A stretch of DNA of 32,000 nucleotides, taken from NCBI RefSeq assembly GCF_000015025.1, contig NC_008578.1, positions 2,220,001-2,252,000 of the forward strand, written 5' to 3'. The notes under the pieces are model-generated. The model was not told the origin of the DNA and did not search any database. It saw only the letters and a program-made list of their open reading frames with translations. Shown here piece by piece: positions 11,656 to 24,182 of the stretch (within the stretch, counting starts at the first letter, position 1; each line of letters starts with the position of its first letter). A program made the translations under genes and the position numbers. Origin of the DNA: Acidothermus cellulolyticus 11B (GTDB lineage Bacteria > Actinomycetota > Actinomycetes > Acidothermales > Acidothermaceae).

Positions 11656-11694
11656 CACGACGGAGCGGGGGCCGGTCACCTCCGGCGGCGTACC
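11656..11694. repeat. Left copy of the 39-nt imperfect direct repeat flanking the island
   Basis: The sequence cacgacggagcgggggccggtcacctccggcggcgtacc matches 20220-20258 at 34 of 39 positions, and the first 16 nt are identical. A partial extra copy, cgacggagcgaggggccgg, lies at 11630-11648. Confidence 0.75.
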
Positions 11695-11920: not shown

Positions 11921-13723
11921 CTACCCGAGAAACCCCGGAATGTCGTCGTGCCCGTTGAGCACGGCTCGATCGAGGCCACGATTGAACGCCTCACAGGAGG
12001 TCTCGGGCACCAGCAGACAGTGGTGACACGCCCCTGGAGCGGAACCACTTCCGCGAGGTCCGGGCGCATCCTCTCCGCACACCGGGTCCGTGGCGCACCA
12101 TGACGCTGCGTCGACCGCAGCTTCGAGGATGTCGCTAAGCTGGCCCGGTGTGCCCAACTCGACTAGGCCACCGAGGGTGCCGTGCAGGTCTCCGGAAGCG
12201 GTATAAACGAGAAACCCAGTGCGCTCGTCCACCGCGAATATCCGTTCCCGAAGTGATGGAAGCGGGTATCCTGCGTGCGGCGCGGCGGCCCGCATCACAA
12301 GATGGGCTAACGTGTGAGCAAGCAGCCACCTCAACCGCTGCGATTCAGGTCCTGGGGGTGCGGCCCGCGCAGCGGCCGCCAAGCGGCTGTCACCGGCCAC
12401 GCGACCCGCCCACCTTGCCACTGCGACTGGCTCAAGGAGAAGCAGTATGCCCTCGCCGAAAACCTGGTATCCCGGCAACCAGTCGTCTGGCGAGTCCTTA
12501 GCGAAATCCTTTGGACGCGGCTTTCCCCAGAGCTGCGCGTAGCCTATCTCCGGGTCCGGCGCTATTGGCTCGACACGGCAGAATCCCACACAAACCCGCG
12601 TCTCGCGCAGCCTCGGAACCAGACTGACCGCCGCAAGGCAACGGCCGAGGCGGCTGTGCTGGAATTTGCCAATATCCTGTGGTTCGACAATAAGGTCCGG
12701 CAGCCTTGCCGTAATCCGTCGTGGATGGTCAGATGACAACAGCGCATTTAATTCTCGAGTACGCAATTCTTGGACGTGTCGAGGTACACTGACCCGACCA
12801 CTCTGTATAGCCTTGAGATGGCGTGTCACCTCAGCAGCATCGGTATGGATGCCCAAGCGTTCGGCAGTCTCCACGATCTTCTCGATGACCTCAGTCCTAC
12901 GAGTTAGTCGACTCAACGTCCGCAGCGTTGCATTCTCCGTCAGAGCGTGGAGTAGAGCCGGGTTGTCTGCGTCGGCCAGCGGTATGGTGAGACTTGACAG
13001 TTGCCATGCATAGTACGCAGCCGTCGACGTTCGTTCCAGCGGGCGAGCACAATGTGTACACGTCTCCGGCTCGGAGTGTGGCAGCCATGGGCGGGCGCCG
13101 GTGCACCTGAAGGTGGTATTTGGATCGAACTGCGCGCTTCGGCTGCAACTTTCGCAATTTAGATACGGACGATCAGCTACATCGGACACACGGTAGCGCA
13201 CGTCCGGAGCGCGACAGGATGAGCCGGGTAGAGCGTGCAGCCAGCCGACCCAGTCGATGTCGTCGAGATGACCAGCTGGGCAAGCGAGTACCAGCGCAGT
13301 CTGGAATGTCGGCCACGAGCGTCGTTTAGAGCTCGGCGGCGTACACGCGTTGCACCGTCCTGGGCTAGCATCCGCAGGACTGCGGTAAATCAGCCGAAAG
13401 CACTTAGGATTCGAACATGCTTCGACAAGCGGAAAGCGCGCCGCGGGCAGTAGCCAATCGCGATCTTTCTTTGGGTTACTACCGGACGGCCACGGCATGA
13501 CGAAGCGCGCAACGCCCGTTGCCGCCTGCAGGTTCGTGTCATTGATGGTCAACTCATCAAGCACGGGGACAGATCCAGAAGGGCGCTTCGGTAACGACTT
13601 CAGCCACGTCGCTGGCGCACAGACCACCGCGCTGACCCGGTCGCGGGTCAGCAGCAGCGCGCCGGGACCAAACGGGGCGATGACATGCGCCCGCCGGAGA
13701 GGCGTCACAGAGCGACTCACCAT
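11921..13723 (-). CDS. DUF1998 domain protein, DrmB-like
   Basis: 600 aa. The N-terminus is LRRAHVIAPFGPGALLL. The N-terminal half carries Cys clusters (C103/C108/C124/C127; C190/C193/C207; C222/C225). The C-terminal block reads LLAHTLAHLVMR...SLRERIF...LVYTASGDLHGTLGGLVELG...WCATDPVC...CHHCLLVPETSCEAFNRGLDR. The start overlaps the upstream stop (ATGGTGA). Confidence 0.8.
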   Translation of the reverse strand: MVSRSVTPLRRAHVIAPFGPGALLLTRDRVSAVVCAPATWLKSLPKRPSGSVPVLDELTINDTNLQAATGVARFVMPWPSGSNPKKDRDWLLPAARFPLVEACSNPKCFRLIYRSPADASPGRCNACTPPSSKRRSWPTFQTALVLACPAGHLDDIDWVGWLHALPGSSCRAPDVRYRVSDVADRPYLNCESCSRSAQFDPNTTFRCTGARPWLPHSEPETCTHCARPLERTSTAAYYAWQLSSLTIPLADADNPALLHALTENATLRTLSRLTRRTEVIEKIVETAERLGIHTDAAEVTRHLKAIQSGRVSVPRHVQELRTRELNALLSSDHPRRITARLPDLIVEPQDIGKFQHSRLGRCLAAVSLVPRLRETRVCVGFCRVEPIAPDPEIGYAQLWGKPRPKDFAKDSPDDWLPGYQVFGEGILLLLEPVAVARWAGRVAGDSRLAAAARAAPPGPESQRLRWLLAHTLAHLVMRAAAPHAGYPLPSLRERIFAVDERTGFLVYTASGDLHGTLGGLVELGTPGQLSDILEAAVDAASWCATDPVCGEDAPGPRGSGSAPGACHHCLLVPETSCEAFNRGLDRAVLNGHDDIPGFLG

Positions 13724-16700
13724 GCATCCTCCTCATCTACGTCGGTAGCAGAGTCCTGTCGGTGCATCACGCTCCTCCTTGCGCAGGGATCAGGCGGTAG
13801 CCAGTCCTCATCGATGCTTACCGCCGCGTAGGCATCGACGTTGCGCAGTGAGGTCAGCACCGCCCAACTGGCTTTATCAGGCGGCGCAGGATCCTCCAGC
13901 GCACGCAGAAACTGCGCGCCGTGGCGTCCGGCTGTACCCCAAGGCATTTTTTCGTTGATCGCGGCCCGTAGCTCGGTCACTGCGGCTCGTGTGAGGGCTT
14001 CAATACGCTCACCGACAGCTTTACCGACAAGAGCCCCTGCCCGGTCACGGATCGCGGCCGCGGCGGCCTCGACGAGCGGAACATCCGCTTCCACGACGTC
14101 TTTAAAGTCAGTTGAACGGATCTGACGTACAACCGCGGCTATCGTACTGCGCAAGCCCCTTGCTAGCGCAGCGTCCGTAAAAGGTGTAACACTCGCAGGC
14201 TCCACTGACCCGTAGAGTCGCTCGTGCACCGAGGTAAACCGCTCATAGTGGCTCATGTCACGGCCTGTCAACGGGTTGAGAAGCACAACCACGAGACCGG
14301 GCGCATTTGTCGGATCACGGCCGACTCGGCCCGCAACCTGGATGTACTGGGCTGAGGTCTTAGGCTGCCGCACGATCGTCAATAGTCCGAGTCGGTCAAT
14401 ATCAAGGCCGACCTCAATGACGCTGGTCGCCAACGCCAGATCAACCGTACCGCGCTCCCAACGGCGACGTGCAAGGCGTTCCAGTGCCTCGCTCGCCGCG
14501 TTACTCGACGCGCTGGTAAGCTCAATGTCCTCTAGCGTACGAATCGCGAGCCTTTGCTTACCCTTCTTAACCGGCCCAGTACGGACCCCTGTCGCCGACA
14601 CCAATCGCCACGCGTAACCACGAAGGTCGGTAGCAAGAAGTGCCTTCGCGTGACCGAGGTCCCGCAAGGAGCCAAAAAACACGAGATTCGTCCAGTAGGG
14701 GTCTACGCTAGCTCCGCACTGTTCAATCGCCGCAGCTGCATGCGCGAGGCTGGCGATTACGCGCATCTGTGTCCGAGGGAAACTGTTCACACCCGTGGCA
14801 CAGACGCCGACGAACTTGCGCGGCGGTATACGGTCGTCGCGTCGGGTAAAGAAGCGGTCGTCGATACTCAGGCCCGGCGGTGGGACTAGCCGGACCTGAT
14901 CGGCTGGGCAATTGTAGAGCGCTTCCGCCTGTCGGGCGTACGCCCGGGTTGTTGCCGTCGCGGCGACGACGTGAGGCGACTCACCCTTATCGTGACAGCA
15001 GAGTGCGTGCAGAGCGGACTCATAGAGAGCCACTAAGCTACCCAGCGGCCCGGAAATCAGATGCAGCTCGTCTTGGATGATCAGAGTGGGTGAAGGTCTT
15101 ACCCGCCGGCCCTGTCGATCGATGCCAAAGATGACACGGGCGTCTTCTTTCCACGCCAGCTGGGCGAACTTGTCCACGGTCGCAATTAAAAACGCCGGTG
15201 GTTTTTTGTAGATATCTTCATCGACTTCGTAGACCGGCAGACCACGACCGCCACTGCGAGCAAGGTGAAAGGCACAAACAGGATTCTCGCACGATGCCCG
15301 CACCCGGTAACTGTTCTCCAAGTGCTGCACGTCATACCCCAACACCCGTCCCTCGACGACACGCCCGATCTCGGTGGCGCACGCTGGACACCGGGAAAGT
15401 AGAAACGGCCTGGCATCACGACGAGCTTTTGCATCCTTCACAGTTTGCTCAAGCGCCTTAAGCGCATCTTCACGCCGGTTTGGGGTGCTGGCTTGGCCAA
15501 GCCAGACACCAATCGAAAACCGATCGTTGCCAAGTAGTTCACGGTTCTTTAACCGCAACGTCTCCAGCGCGCATATGAGCGACGCAGCTCGTTGTAGCTG
15601 CTGAGCCGTAAGTAGGCGCAGCGTGTAGCGCATGAGGACGGTGGTGCCGCCTGCATTCGATTGGGCGCGGCGTCGGTACAACATTGCAAAGGCTGCAAGT
15701 CCCAAGTACGCTTCAGTCTTCCCACCGCCGGTAGGCATCCATATGACGTCCACAACACCACGGCGCGGATGCCGGGGATTAATCACCGGGCAGAGGTTCG
15801 CGAGTAAGAATGCCAACTGGAACGGTCGCCATTTAGCAGGACCCGTTGTCGGCTCGGCGCCGTCAACCTGAACCTGGTCACCGACCAAGGTGACATGTCG
15901 CGTAGCCGCCGCATAGCTGCGGCGCTGCTGCGCCATTGCCACCGAAGCCCACTCTAGGCACTGACGTGCTATGCTATTGGTTTTGACGGTTTCCCATCCT
16001 TCTTCAATGGCGTCGGCAAAGGAACGACATACCTGCACATGCTTCTGTGCAGTCGCTCCTGCCGTGCCGGTGAGACGTGCAGCCTGCTCCTCGATTGAGG
16101 TGATCCAATCACGGTAGCTGCGAATCAGCCGCTCGACGGTGGCGACAGCCGATACTTCCCAGCGTCCAAGCCCATCCATGTCGACGGCGAGTGGGCCGTC
16201 CTCATCTTCGATGTCGGGTGTCGTCCCAGAGACTGCCGCAACCGGCAAGGCTTCCGTGCGCACAATGTCCTCACCTTTGACTCGGTGCACTACGGCGTCA
16301 ACTCCGTGTCCGACGGCACGAATGGGTGAATCCCTATATAAGAGCCGCAGGCTGGCGGCCTCCGCCGTTGTATCCGAGTCTCGTTCCGGGTAATCACACA
16401 GGAGACCTTCTGGGACGGCAACTGCAAGCTGTGAAGCGAATAGCACACGCTCAGCCAAGGCTGCTCCATTCCGCGGGGTGCGGTTTGCCAGATAACAGGT
16501 GACAACTCGCTTTCCGTCGGAAGATTTCCTTGCGCGGACACCTATTTCGAGATTTAGCGGATCGACGTCGATCAGCGTCTTTCCCCAAAATTCTGGCTGC
16601 TCGACCTGTAGCGAGAACGGTACCGTTCGGTCGATGGGTACGCGGTGCCAGGCTGTGCCCGGCTGACCGTTGGCTGTTGTATACGGGAATGGTTCGTAGC

Positions 16701-17205
16701 GCGCACCTGTCACTCGCAAGGTCAGTAACGGCGTCGTGTCACGTATTACGAAGGACACACCGAGTGACGACGGACGACCAGGGCGGTCCCTCGGCAAATT
16801 TTCGAGTACAACATCATCCTCGGCCATTCCGTGGCCGGACTCGCCTCCTCGTGTCGCGAATGGTTCGGGAATGGAATTTCCTGGATCCGTATCTAGATCT
16901 TCATCGGCTTCGTCTGGTCTAACCGGCGCCTGCTCAGCGTCGAGTATGTGTTCTTCGCTAAGGTCAAGCTCCATCGGGTACAGAACACCGATGATGTATC
17001 GGGATGTCGGCGAGGCCAAGAGGATTTCCTCGCCGTCGTCGGCAACGAAGAGTCGATCCCGACCCAACCGTCCGACCATGGAATATCCGCGCTCAATGCG
17101 CTTGGCCGTAGCCCCAGGATATATACCGGACTTGTCGACAAGCGGGCCGACCAGGTCTCGGCGGAGCGCATCGATAATCGCATCGCGGGTCTGTTCTGGT
17201 GTCAT
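13717..17205 (-). CDS. Large SF2 (DExH) helicase, DrmA-like
   Basis: 1162 aa. Motif I is MPTGGGKTEAY (15706-15738), motif II DELH (15061-15072), motif III AATAT, and motif VI QYIQVAGRVGR (14317-14349). The ~480-aa N-terminal region contains SRYIIGVLYP and an acidic stretch. A CxxC...Cx4C insertion lies between motifs I and II. The ATG overlaps the upstream stop (ATGA). Confidence 0.85.
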   Translation of the reverse strand: MTPEQTRDAIIDALRRDLVGPLVDKSGIYPGATAKRIERGYSMVGRLGRDRLFVADDGEEILLASPTSRYIIGVLYPMELDLSEEHILDAEQAPVRPDEADEDLDTDPGNSIPEPFATRGGESGHGMAEDDVVLENLPRDRPGRPSSLGVSFVIRDTTPLLTLRVTGARYEPFPYTTANGQPGTAWHRVPIDRTVPFSLQVEQPEFWGKTLIDVDPLNLEIGVRARKSSDGKRVVTCYLANRTPRNGAALAERVLFASQLAVAVPEGLLCDYPERDSDTTAEAASLRLLYRDSPIRAVGHGVDAVVHRVKGEDIVRTEALPVAAVSGTTPDIEDEDGPLAVDMDGLGRWEVSAVATVERLIRSYRDWITSIEEQAARLTGTAGATAQKHVQVCRSFADAIEEGWETVKTNSIARQCLEWASVAMAQQRRSYAAATRHVTLVGDQVQVDGAEPTTGPAKWRPFQLAFLLANLCPVINPRHPRRGVVDVIWMPTGGGKTEAYLGLAAFAMLYRRRAQSNAGGTTVLMRYTLRLLTAQQLQRAASLICALETLRLKNRELLGNDRFSIGVWLGQASTPNRREDALKALEQTVKDAKARRDARPFLLSRCPACATEIGRVVEGRVLGYDVQHLENSYRVRASCENPVCAFHLARSGGRGLPVYEVDEDIYKKPPAFLIATVDKFAQLAWKEDARVIFGIDRQGRRVRPSPTLIIQDELHLISGPLGSLVALYESALHALCCHDKGESPHVVAATATTRAYARQAEALYNCPADQVRLVPPPGLSIDDRFFTRRDDRIPPRKFVGVCATGVNSFPRTQMRVIASLAHAAAAIEQCGASVDPYWTNLVFFGSLRDLGHAKALLATDLRGYAWRLVSATGVRTGPVKKGKQRLAIRTLEDIELTSASSNAASEALERLARRRWERGTVDLALATSVIEVGLDIDRLGLLTIVRQPKTSAQYIQVAGRVGRDPTNAPGLVVVLLNPLTGRDMSHYERFTSVHERLYGSVEPASVTPFTDAALARGLRSTIAAVVRQIRSTDFKDVVEADVPLVEAAAAAIRDRAGALVGKAVGERIEALTRAAVTELRAAINEKMPWGTAGRHGAQFLRALEDPAPPDKASWAVLTSLRNVDAYAAVSIDEDWLPPDPCARRSVMHRQDSATDVDEEDAW

Positions 17206-18806
17206 GCGCCCACCTTCCTCGACAACGTGGTCACACGGCAGCCATGATCGTCAAACAAAGCGCCGAGGCAGCTCAGAGGAACCGGAACCGGCTCTTCAAT
17301 GCGAGCTGTCACCATAGCGAGTAGGAGCGTACCGAGGTCGCTAACGTCCAGTACGGCCCATCCGTTGCGATCTACATCGCTCGCCCAGCGTCGATCTTTC
17401 AAGCACTCGAGCAAATCGCGCCGAATCTCCTCGCCGGCTTGCTGGCGGGCGATGCGAATCCTGACCAGGTCGTCGAAGTGTGCGGCCAGATGCTCAACTC
17501 CAATGACCTTTGTCAGGGCTTCAAACGCCGTAGAACGCCGTGGAGCGATGTAAGACTCGTCGAGGGGACTGCGAAGCAACGTACGCGCGTACTCGCCATC
17601 GCCGAGTATGTCGGTCAGCTGGCGCCACAGTGTGTCGTGACCTTCGCGGTCAAGCGCGCGACGCAGAGCTTTTCTGATTTGGTCCGGGTATCCAGATACC
17701 CGTTCGATCTTCTTAAGCGTCCAGCCAGAACGACTCAACCACTCATTGGCGCGCACGACAATCTGCATATGGGGAGCCGTAGCGCAGCGCACAGCGAGCA
17801 CGTCGCCACGTTCGATTGCTTGGACTGGGCAGGGTAATAAGATAACCGCGCCGGCCTCATCGTCTACGCTTACGACATACGGCCGTGGACCAAGTTCGTT
17901 ATGGAAGAAGATCGCGTGTCCGGACCTGAGTTGGATCTCGACCGCCATCGTCTCGCCGACGCTCGAGGGAGCCTGTAGGCGTGAGATTCGACGCACCGAA
18001 GAAGGGGTTTCTACCGCGCAAGCCCAGTCGCGCGAGCTCTCTATGGGCTGTGCTGGACCGTCGTCGCACACGGATAGTTGCGGATGCGCCTCCGAGGGGA
18101 GCAACCAGATATCATCGGCTGGTAGCGTCGGCGCATCGACCGTCAGCACAACGCGGACCTTTGTCGCTGCCGGCGCTGTCAGGAGCCACCCGTATTCCCG
18201 GAGGATAACATCCTGGCCGCGGAACGGCGAAGCAAACGCAATCGCCGGATGGCCAAGGATAATGCAGACGCGTCGTATGTCGGACCGGGTTCGCAGGTCA
18301 GACGCTATAGCGACGTCGACACAGTCAAACTCTTCGGCGGCAAGCCAGTCCTGTATGGGATCCATCCACTCCGGACGAGGCACTGCTAAGACCGCCTCGG
18401 GAGTGCCATCTAGTGCTGCACCATACTCCGACAGAAGCTCCCCGAGCGCCGATGCCACCGGTGATTGAGTAGCAAACAGTTCGCGCAAAGCCTCCGTAAG
18501 CGATGCTGCACTTTGCCACAGTGTGTGGCCGGGCCTGTCGACAAGAAATTGCTCCAAGTCTTTAATTAGGAACCCAATGCCAGTAAGCTCGTGTGCTGGC
18601 CACAAAGGGGTGCACGTGAGCACCTTTCGCGCATCGAACACTCCGCGAAGCACTTTACCAGCTATTGTGGACGTCTCGACATGGGGTCGAAATGCCTTTG
18701 CCACTTGAAGCACGCGCGCGAGTTCCGGCCAAGAGACGCGGGTCACAACGACAGCCGGTGACTCCGCGCAATGCCACATCTCGAATAATGCCTGTAGCTC
18801 GCTCAC
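17202..18806 (-). CDS. Hypothetical protein B of the island operon (no recognisable domain)
   Basis: The ORF is open over 17202..18851 (TTG at 18851). I prefer GTG 18804-18806 because it overlaps the upstream TGA (GTGA coupling); ATG 18779 is another option. The lower-GC codon usage includes tandem TTA-TTA at 17835-17840. I could find no Walker A, HxK (PLD), HNH or methyltransferase motif. Confidence 0.6.
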   Translation of the reverse strand: MSELQALFEMWHCAESPAVVVTRVSWPELARVLQVAKAFRPHVETSTIAGKVLRGVFDARKVLTCTPLWPAHELTGIGFLIKDLEQFLVDRPGHTLWQSAASLTEALRELFATQSPVASALGELLSEYGAALDGTPEAVLAVPRPEWMDPIQDWLAAEEFDCVDVAIASDLRTRSDIRRVCIILGHPAIAFASPFRGQDVILREYGWLLTAPAATKVRVVLTVDAPTLPADDIWLLPSEAHPQLSVCDDGPAQPIESSRDWACAVETPSSVRRISRLQAPSSVGETMAVEIQLRSGHAIFFHNELGPRPYVVSVDDEAGAVILLPCPVQAIERGDVLAVRCATAPHMQIVVRANEWLSRSGWTLKKIERVSGYPDQIRKALRRALDREGHDTLWRQLTDILGDGEYARTLLRSPLDESYIAPRRSTAFEALTKVIGVEHLAAHFDDLVRIRIARQQAGEEIRRDLLECLKDRRWASDVDRNGWAVLDVSDLGTLLLAMVTARIEEPVPVPLSCLGALFDDHGCRVTTLSRKVGA

Positions 18807-19861
18807 CACATATCTTCTTCGTCGCAGGTGGTTTCTGGCTCTATCCGGCAAAAGATTTCAAGTCCCGCGGTTGGCTTCAGCAATGACACGAGTGTTGGTG
18901 GCAGATTTCTTGGCGCAGGCCAACCAGAGACAGATATCACACTGGCGACTCTGGATGCTGCTGGAGAGCGCCTCGACAACAGCAGGATTATTGGCACGTT
19001 TGGCCAAACGCTCCGTGAGCTGCGGGCCCATGCCGCTGAACCAGTGAAAAGAATTAATCGTGGCTGCAGCTCGCGCGCCCAGGGTATTCTCTCCGGCTGC
19101 GGGATAGTCCGCTCCGTCAGGACGGGGTGGCGGAACCACTCCTCTAGCCTGCCGCTGTGCATACGGCCTCGCACATGTAACACGGGGCTCGCCTTCGCAA
19201 GTAGGTCAACGTCCTTAAGAAATGTAGACCATTCGCCGACAACAACCACTGGATGGGCGGCCGACGCGGATAGTCGCTGACCGGCAATTTCCGGGTTACA
19301 TTTCAGCGCCTCCGCTACTTCCCTCCGCAATTCGTCGGGAAGGCGCCATCGGGATCGCTCTGGGAATCCCTCCGGCAGCCGGTGCACACTGCCCCGATCC
19401 CCGCGGAAATGTACGCCCGCGAACATCAGTTCCTCGTCACTCATACGATCCAGCGAAGCATCGATAAATTCGCCGCTTAACCAACCGGTCACCCTCGCCC
19501 CAACTTCAAGGCGCGTATGTGGGCAATCCCGACATAATCGGTTGACGAGTGTGGCACCGAGCGTGACAACAACTCCGGCAAGTTGCGGGGTTGGAACCGT
19601 TATGATCACCCGCAAGTTCCGGGCCGATGCGGTCTCAAGACAGGTAAGTGCCTGAGCCAAGCAATGCAGGTGGCGCAGACCTGCGGGTAGTACCTCCGCT
19701 TCTGCGCGGGCTCGTCGTTGCAACACGCAGATCACCTTGTATGCCAAGCGCACACGGAGATGGCTTTCGGACGTACCATACGCGCTACGGCGGACGTGCG
19801 CACGCCTTTCGGCGGAAAATGGTGGAAGAGAGCCGATCACCGTAGCTTCGAATCGACGCAC
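18803..19861 (-). CDS. Hypothetical protein A of the island operon (no recognisable domain; start uncertain)
   Basis: 352-codon ORF from GTG 19861, with no convincing SD at any candidate start. It contains four in-frame TTA codons (19535, 19478, 19178, 19055) and ends ...CDEEDMW. It is the first gene of the coupled four-gene operon. Confidence 0.55.
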   Translation of the reverse strand: MRRFEATVIGSLPPFSAERRAHVRRSAYGTSESHLRVRLAYKVICVLQRRARAEAEVLPAGLRHLHCLAQALTCLETASARNLRVIITVPTPQLAGVVVTLGATLVNRLCRDCPHTRLEVGARVTGWLSGEFIDASLDRMSDEELMFAGVHFRGDRGSVHRLPEGFPERSRWRLPDELRREVAEALKCNPEIAGQRLSASAAHPVVVVGEWSTFLKDVDLLAKASPVLHVRGRMHSGRLEEWFRHPVLTERTIPQPERIPWARELQPRLILFTGSAAWARSSRSVWPNVPIILLLSRRSPAASRVASVISVSGWPAPRNLPPTLVSLLKPTAGLEIFCRIEPETTCDEEDMW

Positions 19862-20219: not shown

Positions 20220-20258
20220 CACGACGGAGCGGGGGTCCGTCACCCACGCCGGCGTACC
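20220..20258. repeat. Right copy of the 39-nt imperfect direct repeat flanking the island
   Basis: The sequence cacgacggagcgggggtccgtcacccacgccggcgtacc lies 11 nt upstream of the PPOX ATG and matches 11656-11694 at 34 of 39 positions. Confidence 0.75.
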
Positions 20259-20268
20259 CTGAGAACCG

Positions 20269-20727
20269 ATGACCACGACCCGAGACGAGCCGCACGGCAA
20301 GCTGCCCGCCGATCACATCGCTTTCCTTTCCGGCCGTCGCCTCGGGCACCTCGTCACTCTTCGGCCCAACGGATGGCCGCACATCTCCAACGTCCTCTAT
20401 CACGTGGACGCCGACCAGCCGATCATCCGGATCTCGGTTACCGATGATCGGGTCAAGGTGCGCAACCTTCGACAGGACCCTCGCGCGGTGCTGCACGTCG
20501 ACGGCCCGGACGGCTGGACCTGGCTTGCTGCCGAGGGAATTGCGGAACTCTCGCCGGTTGCCGCGCAGCCCGATGACCCGACCGTCGACGAACTCGCCGA
20601 GATCTACCGCTCGATCCGCGGCGAGGATCACCCGGATTGGTCGGAATTCCGGACAGCGATGGTGGCCGAGAAACGGCTCGTCCTGCGCATCCACATTCGT
20701 CGCACATACGGCCTGCTTCGTCGGTGA
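20269..20727 (+). CDS. PPOX-class (pyridoxamine 5'-phosphate oxidase-like) probable F420-dependent enzyme
   Basis: 152 aa with ATG 20269. The sequence LSGRRLGHLVTLRPNGWPHISNVLYHVD...RISVTDDRVKVRNLRRDPRAVLHVDG...W resembles the Rv1155-type split-barrel family. GC content matches the host. Confidence 0.75.
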   Translation: MTTTRDEPHGKLPADHIAFLSGRRLGHLVTLRPNGWPHISNVLYHVDADQPIIRISVTDDRVKVRNLRQDPRAVLHVDGPDGWTWLAAEGIAELSPVAAQPDDPTVDELAEIYRSIRGEDHPDWSEFRTAMVAEKRLVLRIHIRRTYGLLRR

Positions 20728-20760: not shown

Positions 20761-22089
20761 CTACTCGGCGGCCTGCCTCACGTTGCCAGCCGCCAGGCCG
20801 CTGATCTGAATGGCCAACGCCTCGAACGCCAGCAGCGGATTGGCGTTCGCCGCCAGGGCCGCCCGGCACTCCATGATCGCGTCGATCCGGTGCAGGGTCA
20901 TTTCGGGAGTCGACCGGGCGGCAACGTCGCGGATTCGATCGAGGACGTCGGCGTTCATCACCCACGGACGGGATCGCGCGGCAACCCCGGGGACCGCCCC
21001 GGCAGCCCCGGCCCCGGAGACCCCTTCGGCAACCCCGGGGACCGCCTCGGCAACCCCGGACACCGTCTCCGCGGCCACTCCCAGTTGAACCAGCAGCACG
21101 TCGCGGAAGAACCCGGCCAAATCCATGAGGGTTCGGTCCAGCGCATCCCGCTGGGCCCGGCTGGCCCGGGATTTTTGCCGCGCCTCGAGCTCGCGGAGTG
21201 CAGCGGAACTACCTCGCAGCACGCCCGACGCGACCCGCCGCCGGTCGCCGGACGCCGTCCCACCCTCGCCGAGCGCTTCCCGCAGGGCAGCGGTCTCGGC
21301 CTGATCGAGCGCTTCCGTCTCCGTGGTCGCTTCGCTCGTCGCGGCGTCAACCAGGTCGGCGGCGACGCGCAAGCACCCGCCGAGATCGATCGGACCCGCC
21401 AACCGGGCCGCCGCCTCCAACACCGCCGATCGCCGGGCCCGCGCCCGCGCGTCGGTCGCCAGCCGCAGCGCGCGGCCGATATGCGCACCCGCCGCCCGGG
21501 CCGCCAGTTCCGCGGTGTCGGCGGCGACGCCGTTCCGCCGAATCAGCAGCTCCGCGACCGCGGCAACCGGCGGAGTGCGAAGGGTCACCAGCCGGCAGCG
21601 GGACCGGATCGTCGGCACCAGATCGTGCGGCGCGGGAACGCACAGCAACCACACCGTCCGGGGTGCCGGCTCTTCGATTGCCTTCAAGAGCACGTTCGCC
21701 GCGCCCTCGGTCAACCGGTCGGCGTCCTCGAGCACGACCACCTGCCAGCGGGCATTCGCCGGGGCCAACGCGGCGCGGGCGACCAGCTCACGCGCCTCGG
21801 CAACCCCAAGGGAGAGACCCTGCGGCCGGACGATCGTCACATCCGGGTGGGTTCCGGCGAGAACCGTCCGGCAGTCGGTGCACTCGCCGCAACCCGGCTC
21901 AGCCGCCCGGCACTGCAGGGCAGCCGCGAACGCCCGAGCGGCCACGCTCCGTCCCGAACCCGGCGGGCCGACGAACAGCCACGCATGCGTCATCCCGGCC
22001 CCCGACGCGCGGGCCGCCGCCGCGACCGCACGCAGCGTCTCGACCACCTGCTGCTGCCCGATAATTTCCCCGAAAACACCGCGGCTCAC
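20761..22089 (-). CDS. holB: DNA polymerase III subunit delta'
   Basis: The N-terminus reads VFGEIIGQQQVVETLR...HAWLFVGPPGSGRSVAARAFAAALQC...GCGECTDC (zinc module), followed by VVVLEDADRLTEGAANVLLKAIEEP and SRC. The GTG start overlaps the tmk stop (GTGA). Confidence 0.85.
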   Translation of the reverse strand: MSRGVFGEIIGQQQVVETLRAVAAAARASGAGMTHAWLFVGPPGSGRSVAARAFAAALQCRAAEPGCGECTDCRTVLAGTHPDVTIVRPQGLSLGVAEARELVARAALAPANARWQVVVLEDADRLTEGAANVLLKAIEEPAPRTVWLLCVPAPHDLVPTIRSRCRLVTLRTPPVAAVAELLIRRNGVAADTAELAARAAGAHIGRALRLATDARARARRSAVLEAAARLAGPIDLGGCLRVAADLVDAATSEATTETEALDQAETAALREALGEGGTASGDRRRVASGVLRGSSAALRELEARQKSRASRAQRDALDRTLMDLAGFFRDVLLVQLGVAAETVSGVAEAVPGVAEGVSGAGAAGAVPGVAARSRPWVMNADVLDRIRDVAARSTPEMTLHRIDAIMECRAALAANANPLLAFEALAIQISGLAAGNVRQAAE

Positions 22090-24182
22090 GGCGTCCCTCC
22101 GGCGGTTGACGGCAGCGGGTCGCGCGGAGCTCGTTTCGGGGGAAACGGCAAGACGGGCAGGATCCGCTGAACGACGAGCCGATGAATGTCCGCAGCGGAC
22201 AACCGGGCGTCGATGACAAGGTACCGTTCCGGATCGGCTTCGGCACGCTGCCGAAACACGTTCCGCACCCGCTCGTGAAAAGCCGCGTCCTCAGCTTGCA
22301 GACGATCGGGTGCGCGGTCCCGCCGTCCCGTGCGGGCCAATCCCTCATCCGGCGGAACATCCAACAGCACGGTGAGATCCGGGCGCAGACCAGACGTCGC
22401 GAACCGCGACAGCTGCTCGACGTCGCGCGGCGATAAATCCCGCCCGCCGCCCTGATAGGCAAGGGATGAATCGACGTACCGGTCGCTGATGACAATCGCA
22501 CCGCGCGCCAACGCCGGCCGAATCACCTTCGCGACGTGCTCCGCCCGATCGGCGGCGTACAGCAACGCTTCGGCGCGCGGGGAGGGAGCCGGTTCCCGGG
22601 GGTCGAGGAGAATCTCGCGAAGCCGATGACCGAGCGGCGTCCCGCCGGGTTCGCGGCTCACCACGACCTCGTATCCGCGATCGGCAAGATAGCGGGCCAG
22701 CAATTCCACCTGTGTCGATTTGCCCGCCCCTTCGCCGCCTTCGAACGCGACGAAGAAACCGGTGGCGACACCCCGCCCGGTCAACGGGTGCCAGCCGAAA
22801 ACGGCATCGATGAAATCACGCCACAACGGCACGTCGCGGTCATCCATCTGCCGATAGGCGACGAGGCCGACGACCAGTGCACCAATGCCTGCGAAGAGCA
22901 GCGTCATCGCCGAGCCGTTGACCGGGAACGTGACGTCGCCGATGCGCAGAACGTGCGTGCCGATGCCGCCAGAGAGAAACGGTCCCGCCGCAACCATCAG
23001 AAGAATGTCCACCTGCATGAGCGACTGCAACGTCGCCCAGGTGCGGCCGCGTGTGGCGTCCTCAACTTCCAAGCCGAGCAAGGTGTACCCGGTGACCCAG
23101 GCAATGCCGGCGCAACAGCCGAGCAGCAGCGCACCGAAAACAACAAGCACCAGATTATGGACCAGCGCGGTCGCCGCGAGAATCACTCCCGCTGCGGCGA
23201 TGCTCAACCCGAAGAGCCGACGCCGGGAGAATCCGCGCAGCACCCGCGGACCGGTGAACATGCCAATGGCCAACCCGAGAAAAACCGCCCCGAACAACAT
23301 GCCGTACCCGGCTCCCCCGCCGCCGAGATCCCGCACGTAAATCGTGGCGACACCGATGACGACCCCGGCCGCGCCGAACGCACCGAGCATTCCGACCGCA
23401 AGGCCGCGCACCACCGGTGTTTGGCCCATGAACCGCCACCCGTCGACGATTGACCGGAACACCGACGGATGCGTGACGACGCCGTCGGCGGTCCGCCGCC
23501 GTCCCCCGTGCGTGGAAATTTCCCGCAGGCTGAAAATCGTCGCCGCCGAGACGAGGAACGTCACCGCATCGAAATACAGGGCGAGGTCGACACGATTCGT
23601 CGTGAACAACGGAATCCAACGGGCAAGGACGCCGGTGAGCAGGCTGAGCAGTGCGAAAACCGCCGCGGCGATCGGGGCCGTGCCATAGGCGCCGAGGAGA
23701 TTCAGCGAGCCGGCGTCGCCCATGCGCTCACGAGGCACCAGATTCGGGACCGTCGCTTCCTTCGCCGGAATCCAGAACAGGCTCAACGTCTCAATGAGGA
23801 AAGTCGCGACAAAGAGCCACCAGAGCGTGTGCACGATCGGGATCGACGCGTAGAGCGCGAACCGTCCGATGTCGGCGATCACCATGGTGAGCCGGCGATC
23901 CAAGCGGTCAGCCAATGCTCCGGCCAACGGCGCGAGGGTCACCGCGGGCAACAACCGGACGAAGACCACCGTCCCGACCGAGAAATTCTGCGCCAGATAC
24001 GTGTGCCCGCTGGCCAAGCTGGCGGCCAGCGCCGTCTGGCCGAGAAAGCCCAGCCAGTCGCCGAAACTCGACACCGCGAGCGCGGTCCAGAGTTTGCGGA
24101 ACGACGGAATCCGCAGCACGCCGCGCAAATCCGACGTACCGACGGCATTCACCGCAGACCCGAGACGAGCCGTGTTGTCCAC
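22086..24182 (-). CDS. tmk: MFS-like membrane domain fused to thymidylate kinase
   Basis: 698 aa. The ~470-aa N-terminal part is polytopic and MFS-like. The C-terminal part, FFVAFEGGEGAGKSTQVELLARYL...SREPGGTPLG...DRYVDSSLAYQG, is a dTMP kinase. The same fusion and the topA-tmk-holB order are known in Streptomyces. Confidence 0.85.
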   Translation of the reverse strand: MDNTARLGSAVNAVGTSDLRGVLRIPSFRKLWTALAVSSFGDWLGFLGQTALAASLASGHTYLAQNFSVGTVVFVRLLPAVTLAPLAGALADRLDRRLTMVIADIGRFALYASIPIVHTLWWLFVATFLIETLSLFWIPAKEATVPNLVPRERMGDAGSLNLLGAYGTAPIAAAVFALLSLLTGVLARWIPLFTTNRVDLALYFDAVTFLVSAATIFSLREISTHGGRRRTADGVVTHPSVFRSIVDGWRFMGQTPVVRGLAVGMLGAFGAAGVVIGVATIYVRDLGGGGAGYGMLFGAVFLGLAIGMFTGPRVLRGFSRRRLFGLSIAAAGVILAATALVHNLVLVVFGALLLGCCAGIAWVTGYTLLGLEVEDATRGRTWATLQSLMQVDILLMVAAGPFLSGGIGTHVLRIGDVTFPVNGSAMTLLFAGIGALVVGLVAYRQMDDRDVPLWRDFIDAVFGWHPLTGRGVATGFFVAFEGGEGAGKSTQVELLARYLADRGYEVVVSREPGGTPLGHRLREILLDPREPAPSPRAEALLYAADRAEHVAKVIRPALARGAIVISDRYVDSSLAYQGGGRDLSPRDVEQLSRFATSGLRPDLTVLLDVPPDEGLARTGRRDRAPDRLQAEDAAFHERVRNVFRQRAEADPERYLVIDARLSAADIHRLVVQRILPVLPFPPKRAPRDPLPSTAGGTP

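Follow-up and report, generated by a model that had tools for sequence, protein, structure and literature searches.

Two operon-leading genes of Acidothermus cellulolyticus as a probable split DrmE in a minimal, mobile DISARM-like cassette

What do the two genes at the head of a compositionally atypical operon in Acidothermus cellulolyticus 11B encode? The operon lies in a 32,000-nucleotide stretch of contig NC_008578.1 (positions 2,220,001 to 2,252,000), here called the window; coordinates below count from its first letter. GC content falls to 58–62% at ~12–20 kb of the window, as against 66–70% in the flanks, and four minus-strand open reading frames (ORFs) occupy this low-GC block in the operon order A-B-DrmA-DrmB. 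The leading genes correspond to two long ORFs (A, 18803-19861; B, 17202-18851) for which a preliminary description, made from the letters alone, had found no recognisable domain. We consider it likely that A and B together are a split, highly divergent DrmE, forming with DrmA and DrmB a minimal, mobile DISARM-like anti-phage cassette. Its four genes are as follows.

18803..19726, minus strand: gene A, probable N-terminal module of a split DrmE-like protein, 307 amino acids (aa), placed by homologue lengths, a Shine-Dalgarno sequence and profile links
17202..18809, minus strand: gene B, probable C-terminal module of the split DrmE-like protein, starting at GTG 18809 (535 aa) or at GTG 18806 (534 aa)
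13717..17205, minus strand: DrmA, DISARM-type YprA-family superfamily 2 (SF2) helicase, 1162 aa, with PADLOC and NCBIfam matches and intact motifs
11921..13723, minus strand: DrmB, OB-CON-DUF1998 partner of DrmA, 600 aa, with PADLOC and NCBIfam matches

Are A and B genuine genes, and where do they begin? We take both as real, as the preliminary description had done, because they have homologues (27 for A, 12 close ones for B), conserved synteny, and ratios of nonsynonymous to synonymous substitution (dN/dS) below one; in the least saturated pair, two Mycobacterium copies, the values are 0.26 (A) and 0.40 (B). B is also 100% identical to a hypothetical protein of A. cellulolyticus. The earlier length of 352 aa for A needs revision. 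Because its homologues are 307–311 aa long and align from residue 46 of the 352-aa ORF, A most likely starts at GTG 19726, giving 307 aa. An AAGGTG Shine-Dalgarno sequence (19738-19733) stands 6 nucleotides ahead of this codon, and the part of the ORF upstream of 19726, up to 19861, is probably untranslated. Stop and start codons overlap at every junction, bearing out the coupling of A, B and the helicase that had been read from the sequence before: ATGTGGTGA between A and B (with GTG 18809 or 18806 as the start of B), ATGA between B and DrmA (17205-17202), and ATGGTGA between DrmA and DrmB (13723-13717). A and DrmA share a further feature at these junctions, an acidic tail closed by Trp (DEEDMW*, 18803-18825; DEEDAW*, 13717-13740), with DDEDAW, DDGEAW and GPEDTW in relatives (also in loci L001, L003 and L004); both tail junctions read GA(R)GA(R)GAY-NNN-TGGTGAG. 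The tail could be a shared docking peptide, or merely the coupling signal made up of a Shine-Dalgarno sequence and an overlapping start.

To which system do the neighbours belong? DrmA matched the PADLOC DrmA model at 1.5e-177 and the NCBIfam model DISARM_DrmAS at 4.7e-231 (770 bits, below the 950-bit equivalog cut-off), and its helicase motifs I, II and VI (GGGKTEAY, DELH, QVAGRVGR) are intact. DrmB matched PADLOC at 6.5e-55 and the NCBIfam model DrmB_fam with 310 bits (cut-off 240 bits), and its C-terminal Cys cluster is likewise intact. DrmA and DrmB are both components of class 2 (PADLOC type II) DISARM, the class suggested earlier. That placement stands for DrmA, DrmB and the DrmE-family part, and fails for drmC and drmMII, both absent from the window. 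Class 2 systems (drmE-drmA-drmB-drmC-drmMII; Ofir 2018) thus share with the cassette a short-type DrmA, DrmB and a DrmE-family component upstream of DrmA, whereas their definition also requires the PLD nuclease DrmC and the C5 cytosine methyltransferase DrmMII; lacking both, the cassette has no encoded self-marking. Scans of the main ORFs of the window revealed no methyltransferase, PLD or other nuclease family. No HxK-motif ORF adjoins the related minimal cassettes, and no methyltransferase family appears in the Pfam tables of five related loci (L001-L005). The class 1 pair of DrmD (SNF2) and DrmMI (N6 adenine methylase) upstream of DrmA is absent from the window too. According to a preprint (bioRxiv 10.1101/2021.12.28.474362, citing Ofir 2018), class 2 protection disappears when drmA, drmB or drmE is deleted and does not depend on drmC, whereas loss of drmMII is deleterious; the requirement for drmE is established for the B. 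paralicheniformis class 2 system only. Because class 2 protection needs drmE, drmA and drmB but not drmC, the window cassette would amount to the essential "restriction core" alone. DrmA also carries a long acidic low-complexity stretch in its N-terminal region (residues ~85–150, window ~16750–16950), which could be the counterpart of the DNA-mimicking trigger loop of class 1 DrmA.

What family does B belong to? Single-sequence searches of Pfam, PADLOC and NCBIfam returned no match to the window B, so that at this level the earlier finding of no recognisable domain holds; it gives way in the sensitive profile searches that had been proposed as a check, which tie B to the DrmE family. Searching with a B profile recovered 259 cluster representatives at E <= 1e-3, nearly all ~500–545 aa long. 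Among 81 diverse members of this family, none matched PADLOC, eight matched the NCBIfam model DrmE_fam (NF038316), and seven matched the Pfam model DrmE_C (PF24957; best 2e-7). The DrmE_C gathering score of 27 was exceeded by a B-like protein of Nostoc (locus L013, 35.5 bits) and by the family members P0169 (31.3) and P0155 (29.8), while intermediate B-like proteins reached 65–69 bits against DrmE_fam, below its 80-bit cut-off. The matches are extensive: residues 57–500 of P0188 align to positions 363–835 of the 838 in DrmE_fam (E 1.3e-18), and two Nostoc B-like proteins align to positions 453–802 and 393–802 (E 3e-19 and 3.6e-18, respectively). The window-type B family in turn aligned with these DrmE-proximal proteins over 478 columns (hhalign probability 99.8%, E 1.2e-27). 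The best-conserved element is a helix, I..AH(R/Q)QAG..IR(K/R).LL, which reads IARQQAGEEIRRDLL in the window. These profile comparisons establish B as homologous over its whole length to the C-terminal two-thirds or so of DrmE-family proteins, equivalent to ~475 profile positions of class 2 DrmE.

If B is the larger part of a DrmE, where is the rest? We scanned species-representative genomes with a DrmA alignment, which gave at least 80 further loci, and assigned their genes to classes by local phmmer and HMM searches with motif checks. About 22 of these loci have a split A-like/B-like pair. Another 12 have a single ORF of ~840–1130 aa upstream of DrmA, whose N-terminal third is A-like and whose C-terminal two-thirds, from residue ~320–420 on, are B-like; the class 1 loci surveyed (DrmD + DrmMI + DrmC) never have A-like or B-like genes. 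Every complete locus examined has an A-like gene of ~300–350 aa directly upstream of the B-like gene, an adjacency that spans Actinomycetota, Bacillota, Cyanobacteriota and other phyla. The two genes are fused in one DrmA clade, into a protein of ~840–950 aa encoded upstream of DrmA, and split in another.

Profile comparisons match the two halves in order. The N-terminal part of the fused proteins (9 sequences) aligned with the A-like proteins (27 sequences) over 259 colinear columns (hhalign 91.7%, E 7.8e-7), and the A-like proteins aligned with the window-type A family over 276 columns (93.6%, E 2.1e-7), a value that had been 61% with 4 sequences and rose with 27. Reciprocal hmmsearch of the A family and the A-like proteins returned each as the top match of the other. 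The C-terminal part of the fused proteins matched the B family at 99.9% (alignment A5; E 7.7e-31, 482 columns) and the window-type B alignment (A2) at 93.8%, and the cross-controls (fused N-terminal part against the B family, fused C-terminal part against the A-like proteins) gave 0.1% each. Seven colinear motifs run through a merged alignment of fused, split and window-type sequences: (1) lP.W..f..LG, (2) hhhhvP(T)r..Aa.l.alG, (3) l..G..v, (4) lvG, (5) hhh(D/T)G, (6) hhhl(d/s)R.e and (7) G.E..x(W/Y). A is accordingly homologous, by way of the intermediate A-like family, to the N-terminal third or so of DrmE-family proteins, so that homology to DrmE at the profile level extends over the full length, for B directly and for A transitively. 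The summed length fits as well, with 307 + 535 = 842 aa against 838 DrmE_fam positions.

The comparison with class 2 DrmE is mixed. Like it, A and B have the appropriate combined length, stand adjacent to and upstream of drmA-drmB, and show no known catalytic motif. They differ in being two overlapping genes of 307 and 535 aa rather than a single polypeptide of ~785–840 aa, in scoring below every curated model, and in having no drmC or drmMII companion. The preliminary description had suggested a split or diverged DrmE analogue; the profile match of B, the fusions, and the DrmA/DrmB neighbours support that suggestion in the stronger form of a homologue. One candidate DrmE was rejected. An 801-aa protein of L. 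plantarum plasmid pMK02 (L015:6501-8906) occupies the DrmE position, between a C5-methylase gene and DrmA, and gave a weak match to an intein-splicing domain, but it matches no DrmE model and has no profile similarity to A or B; we leave it as an unrelated or unrecognisably diverged occupant of that position.

Are A and B related to each other? A loosely similar segment had been quoted from the two proteins, and with it a shared Rossmann- or TOPRIM-like fold or an ancient duplication was proposed. Aligning the two families, the check named at the time, gave a probability of 0.35% (E 0.17) and paired segments other than those quoted; with the 0.1% of the two cross-controls in the wider families, neither the segment nor the relationship finds statistical support. 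Both predicted structures do hold a parallel alpha/beta domain, each protein gives weak helicase-core fold matches (below), and the quoted segments are beta-strand-plus-loop elements of those alpha/beta domains. Yet no TOPRIM or Rossmann family matched either protein, and were both RecA-like, A and B would equal two different lobes of a helicase core and not the products of a recent duplication. We regard descent of the pair from one duplicated Rossmann/TOPRIM-like domain as extremely improbable, and a TOPRIM fold, for which no signal was seen, was dropped.

Could the pair instead be an enzyme? AlphaFold2 models of both proteins scored well (A: predicted local distance difference test 87, predicted template-modelling score 0.88; B: 92 and 0.85). 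A is modelled as one parallel alpha/beta domain with a small beta-barrel insert at about residues 78–116. B runs from an N-terminal helical region through an alpha/beta domain (~139–250) and a beta-rich domain (~286–342) to a long helical domain, which holds the DrmE_C signature, and terminal beta-hairpins. The fold search that had been called for (Foldseek; A against PDB, B against PDB and BFVD) found nothing at E <= 1e-3. Its higher-probability matches were repeatedly the cores of SF2 helicases, all weak (E >= 5e-3, TM score at most 0.25): WRN, SWR1, RIG-I and Dbp5 for A (best E 5e-3, probability 0.96), and LGP2, MDA5, the XPF helicase-like domain, Dicer and phage helicases for B. Sequence searches of PDB chains with A- and B-family profiles returned no relatives. 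One A-like motif, hhhhVPT(R)xLA, is similar to motif Ia of helicases, and A and B may derive from an SF2 helicase core, a possibility that these models raise as a lead only.

By sequence, both proteins look non-enzymatic. Walker A was found in none of 27 A-family members, none of 27 A-like proteins, and, as scattered, non-conserved matches to a loose pattern, in 2 of 81 B-family members; neither A nor B has the combination of Walker A (motif I) and DExx (motif II) that marks an SF2 helicase. In neither the merged A-like alignment nor the 81 sequences of the B family is any acidic, His or Lys position invariant. The library scans and Walker A counts confirm the earlier statement that neither protein bears a catalytic or nucleotide-binding signature. 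Degenerate helicase-like modules such as the N-terminal helicase-like domain of XPF/Hef offer a parallel, in view of the weak fold matches of A and B to SF2 cores, their motif-Ia-like VPT(R)xLA and the loss of Walker A; with TM scores of at most 0.25, the parallel is drawn as an analogy for a possible mode of action and not as a claim of homology. Might A or B nonetheless be a cryptic catalytic effector, for example a nuclease of new fold that replaces the NERD-like or PLD protein of other loci? The cassette is conserved yet has no recognisable nuclease, the beta-rich domain of B has weak Hint/intein-like structural matches, and window-type A proteins have a near-invariant CxxCxH...C cluster (C65, C68, H70, C143). 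We judge this reading decidedly unlikely, given the lack of invariant candidate residues noted above, the absence of any nuclease or NTPase family or fold match in the library, PDB-profile and Foldseek searches, and the fact that A-like and B-like proteins keep their size and motifs with or without a NERD gene. No other A-like protein and no fused DrmE has this cysteine-histidine cluster, which is confined to the window-type A family and may mark a Zn site specific to that lineage.

What accompanies the split and fused genes elsewhere? Two more genes, one for a C5-methyltransferase and one for a NERD-like protein of ~580 aa, are present in most split and fused loci. The NERD-like gene sits between DrmE and DrmA, and its product is a homologue of a protein that PGAP names "NERD domain-containing". 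The resulting architecture of five or six genes (C5-methyltransferase, split or fused DrmE, NERD-like, DrmA, DrmB) occurs in many phyla, with the NERD-like gene in the place of the PLD nuclease DrmC, and no description of it was found in the literature searched. The loci that have it are as follows.

First part of the list: L019, L023, L024, L028-L034, L036, L038, L041, L042
Second part of the list: L044-L048, L050, L051, L054, L065, L069, L080, L095

The four families (A-like, B-like, DrmA, DrmB) and their order are common to the window and these loci; the window differs in lacking the NERD-like gene and the methylase. Comparison of the window-type loci shows that no methyltransferase, PLD or NERD gene belongs to their cassette. 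Such reduced cassettes are not confined to this type: cassettes free of NERD-like and methyltransferase genes also occur in Bacillus/Priestia, Nostoc, Rivularia and Caldora and in two fused-DrmE loci. On a rough neighbour-joining tree of DrmA, the split-DrmE loci form one clade, the window DrmA branches with it, and minimal cassettes lie in at least three places within it. This scatter suggests that the C5-methyltransferase and NERD-like genes were lost repeatedly while the core was kept. A Tsukamurella plasmid (L008:4720-7965) departs from the pattern, a RelA/SpoT-like 464-aa protein and a UvrD-like helicase preceding DrmA-DrmB instead of DrmE; on its other side, DrmA-DrmB has genes for a methylase subunit and for a helicase of the DEAD/DEAH-box type that DrmD queries matched.

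Is the window cassette, then, a decaying remnant of such a five-gene system that no longer defends its host? Most of its relatives in the split-DrmE clade have both the methyltransferase and the NERD-like gene that it lacks, and with loss of drmMII being deleterious in class 2, that loss is perhaps tolerated only if the system is inactive. The state of the genes speaks otherwise: all four ORFs are intact and overlap at their stops and starts, the helicase and Zn motifs are preserved, and dN/dS values are 0.26–0.40. The same four-gene unit recurs in Acidothermus, two Mycobacterium species, Blastococcus and metagenomes in different contexts, and the minimal cassettes of other lineages occupy their several places on the DrmA tree. 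A defunct remnant is in our estimate unlikely.

How mobile is this unit? A-B-DrmA-DrmB was found in Mycobacterium sp. SM1, M. parmense, Blastococcus and a metagenome contig, each time in different surroundings. A fifth conserved gene after DrmB was ruled out, as the downstream genes differ in every window-type locus. Other window-type copies adjoin recombinases, an integrase, a ThsB-TIR gene with a caspase-like gene, and RES-Xre. Of these neighbours, the mycobacterial copies have ThsB-TIR, accompanied by the caspase-like peptidase, and RES-Xre, a toxin-antitoxin pair (L002/L003 19680-21327; L001 7178-8194), with serine recombinases nearby. The wider family is also plasmid-borne. A tblastn search of plasmids with B-like proteins returned B-like proteins of ~520 aa alone, and five other organisms have plasmids on which a gene of ~300–340 aa immediately precedes a DrmAB-linked B-like gene: Rhodococcus opacus, Nostoc sp. 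HK-01 (two plasmids), Bacillus sp. FDAARGOS_235, Priestia megaterium and B. toyonensis. The plasmid of B. toyonensis (pDC11_1; L006:7977-15931) has the permuted order DrmA-DrmB-A'-B', with the pair after DrmB; relative to DrmAB, A and B have thus shifted together as one block. These loci show a conserved A-B-DrmA-DrmB cassette, under purifying selection, that moves between unrelated genomic contexts.

The window itself bears possible signs of such an insertion, in the form of two copies of a 39-nucleotide repeat.

11656..11694, no strand: left copy of an imperfect direct repeat, between the PSP1-domain core gene and the end of DrmB
20220..20258, no strand: right copy of the direct repeat, between the region upstream of A and the ATG (20269) of a plus-strand ORF

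The copies match at 34 of 39 positions, with an exact core of 16 nucleotides, and bracket the low-GC DrmAB block exactly. They resemble leftover att sites, as would fit the insertion of 8.5 kb between a pair of core genes, and the island that they enclose contains no integrase. The right copy ends 10 nucleotides ahead of the ATG of the plus-strand ORF (20269-20727), which we read as PPOX/F420-type. Does the operon nevertheless serve the host, as a housekeeping or DNA-repair helicase module like MrfAB with A and B as repair accessory factors? MrfA, a repair enzyme, does belong to the YprA-family helicases, and the island is located amid the replication genes topA, tmk and holB. On the other side, DrmA and DrmB score as DISARM-type and not MrfA-type proteins, the placement of helicase and DUF1998 on two genes is a DISARM signature, the island has foreign GC and flanking repeats, and its homologues elsewhere are patchy, plasmid-borne, or beside recombinases and other defence genes. 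A repair role is highly improbable on this evidence.

Several points weigh against the identification of A and B as a split DrmE in a defence cassette. The window A and B themselves match no DrmE model, both staying below the curated cut-offs (NF038316; NF038323, DISARM_DrmE; and PF24957); A, like B, had no match in single-sequence searches of Pfam, PADLOC and NCBIfam, and the A-like partner proteins had none in NCBIfam or Pfam even at E 10. Compared directly with the window-type A family, the fused N-terminal part gave only 0.1%, which is why the link of A to DrmE is transitive through one intermediate family. The fused proteins are called "DrmE" by virtue of length, position and the B-like match. 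All structural matches are weak (TM up to 0.25, E >= 5e-3), and "pseudo-helicase" is accordingly a lead only. The survey comprises at least 80 loci, and the DrmA tree is a rough neighbour-joining one. Finally, a cassette without a methylase could be inert or could need unlinked genes, loss of the methylase being deleterious in class 2.

How might a split DrmE work with DrmAB? DrmAB is an ATP-dependent translocase that binds single-stranded DNA, is autoinhibited by its trigger loop, and is activated by 5'-overhang DNA, with the role of DrmE unknown (PMC9142583); Bravo et al. 2022 list the interplay of DrmE and DrmAB as an open question. Because the genes are fused elsewhere and their stop and start codons overlap here, we propose that A and B would associate as a DrmE-like heterodimer. 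This heterodimer would be non-catalytic, because the families have neither a conserved Walker A nor any invariant acidic, His or Lys residue, and it would be built around degenerate SF2-helicase-like alpha/beta modules. It may act as a DNA- or partner-binding subunit that confers specificity on, and licenses, the single-stranded DNA translocase DrmAB, the motor that would interfere with incoming phage DNA without a dedicated nuclease. Self DNA might be spared through an unlinked host methylase or by sensing of DNA structure alone. Taken further, DrmE (A:B) and DrmAB could be a self-sufficient, modification-independent module, in which an ATPase-dead, helicase-like heterodimer licenses DrmAB with neither nuclease nor methylase; A:B would then recognise either a phage protein or some structural property of the invading DNA. 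We put this last proposal forward as a tentative possibility, on the doubtful side. If it is true, methylation and the PLD or NERD nucleases are add-ons to DISARM and not its basis.

The genes that flank the island are of housekeeping character. Past A lie topA, an MFS-tmk fusion and holB, and past DrmB lie the PSP1-domain gene, tRNA-Thr and a Na/Ca exchanger; other large ORFs encode an H+-pyrophosphatase, transporters, an aldehyde dehydrogenase and an F420 ligase. The fusion (22086-24182, minus strand, 698 aa), between topA and holB, is a thymidylate kinase with an N-terminal MFS-type membrane domain. Promoter and terminator scans of the locus gave no signal above chance, the fold of the 5' leader had z = -0.34, and an Rfam scan found a tRNA alone.

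What does the finding mean for the DrmE family? The family and DISARM are known already. Bell et al. 2025 go no further than "many uncharacterized DISARM-like classes", our literature search found no named "class 3" DISARM, and in the literature searched we did not find the fission of DrmE, the breadth of both families, or a conserved DrmE-DrmA-DrmB cassette free of methylase and nuclease. On the annotation side, PADLOC, Pfam and NCBIfam currently miss both families as well as the cassette as a whole. If A and B are the split DrmE that we consider likely, DrmE comprises two separable modules, which in nature also exist as individual genes, it is far more widespread and divergent than curated models capture, and cassettes of DrmE, DrmA and DrmB alone are maintained in nature. 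The question that follows is how a DISARM core without a linked methylase avoids autoimmunity when removal of the methylase is deleterious in class 2, and the small split subunits would offer a tractable route to the function of DrmE.

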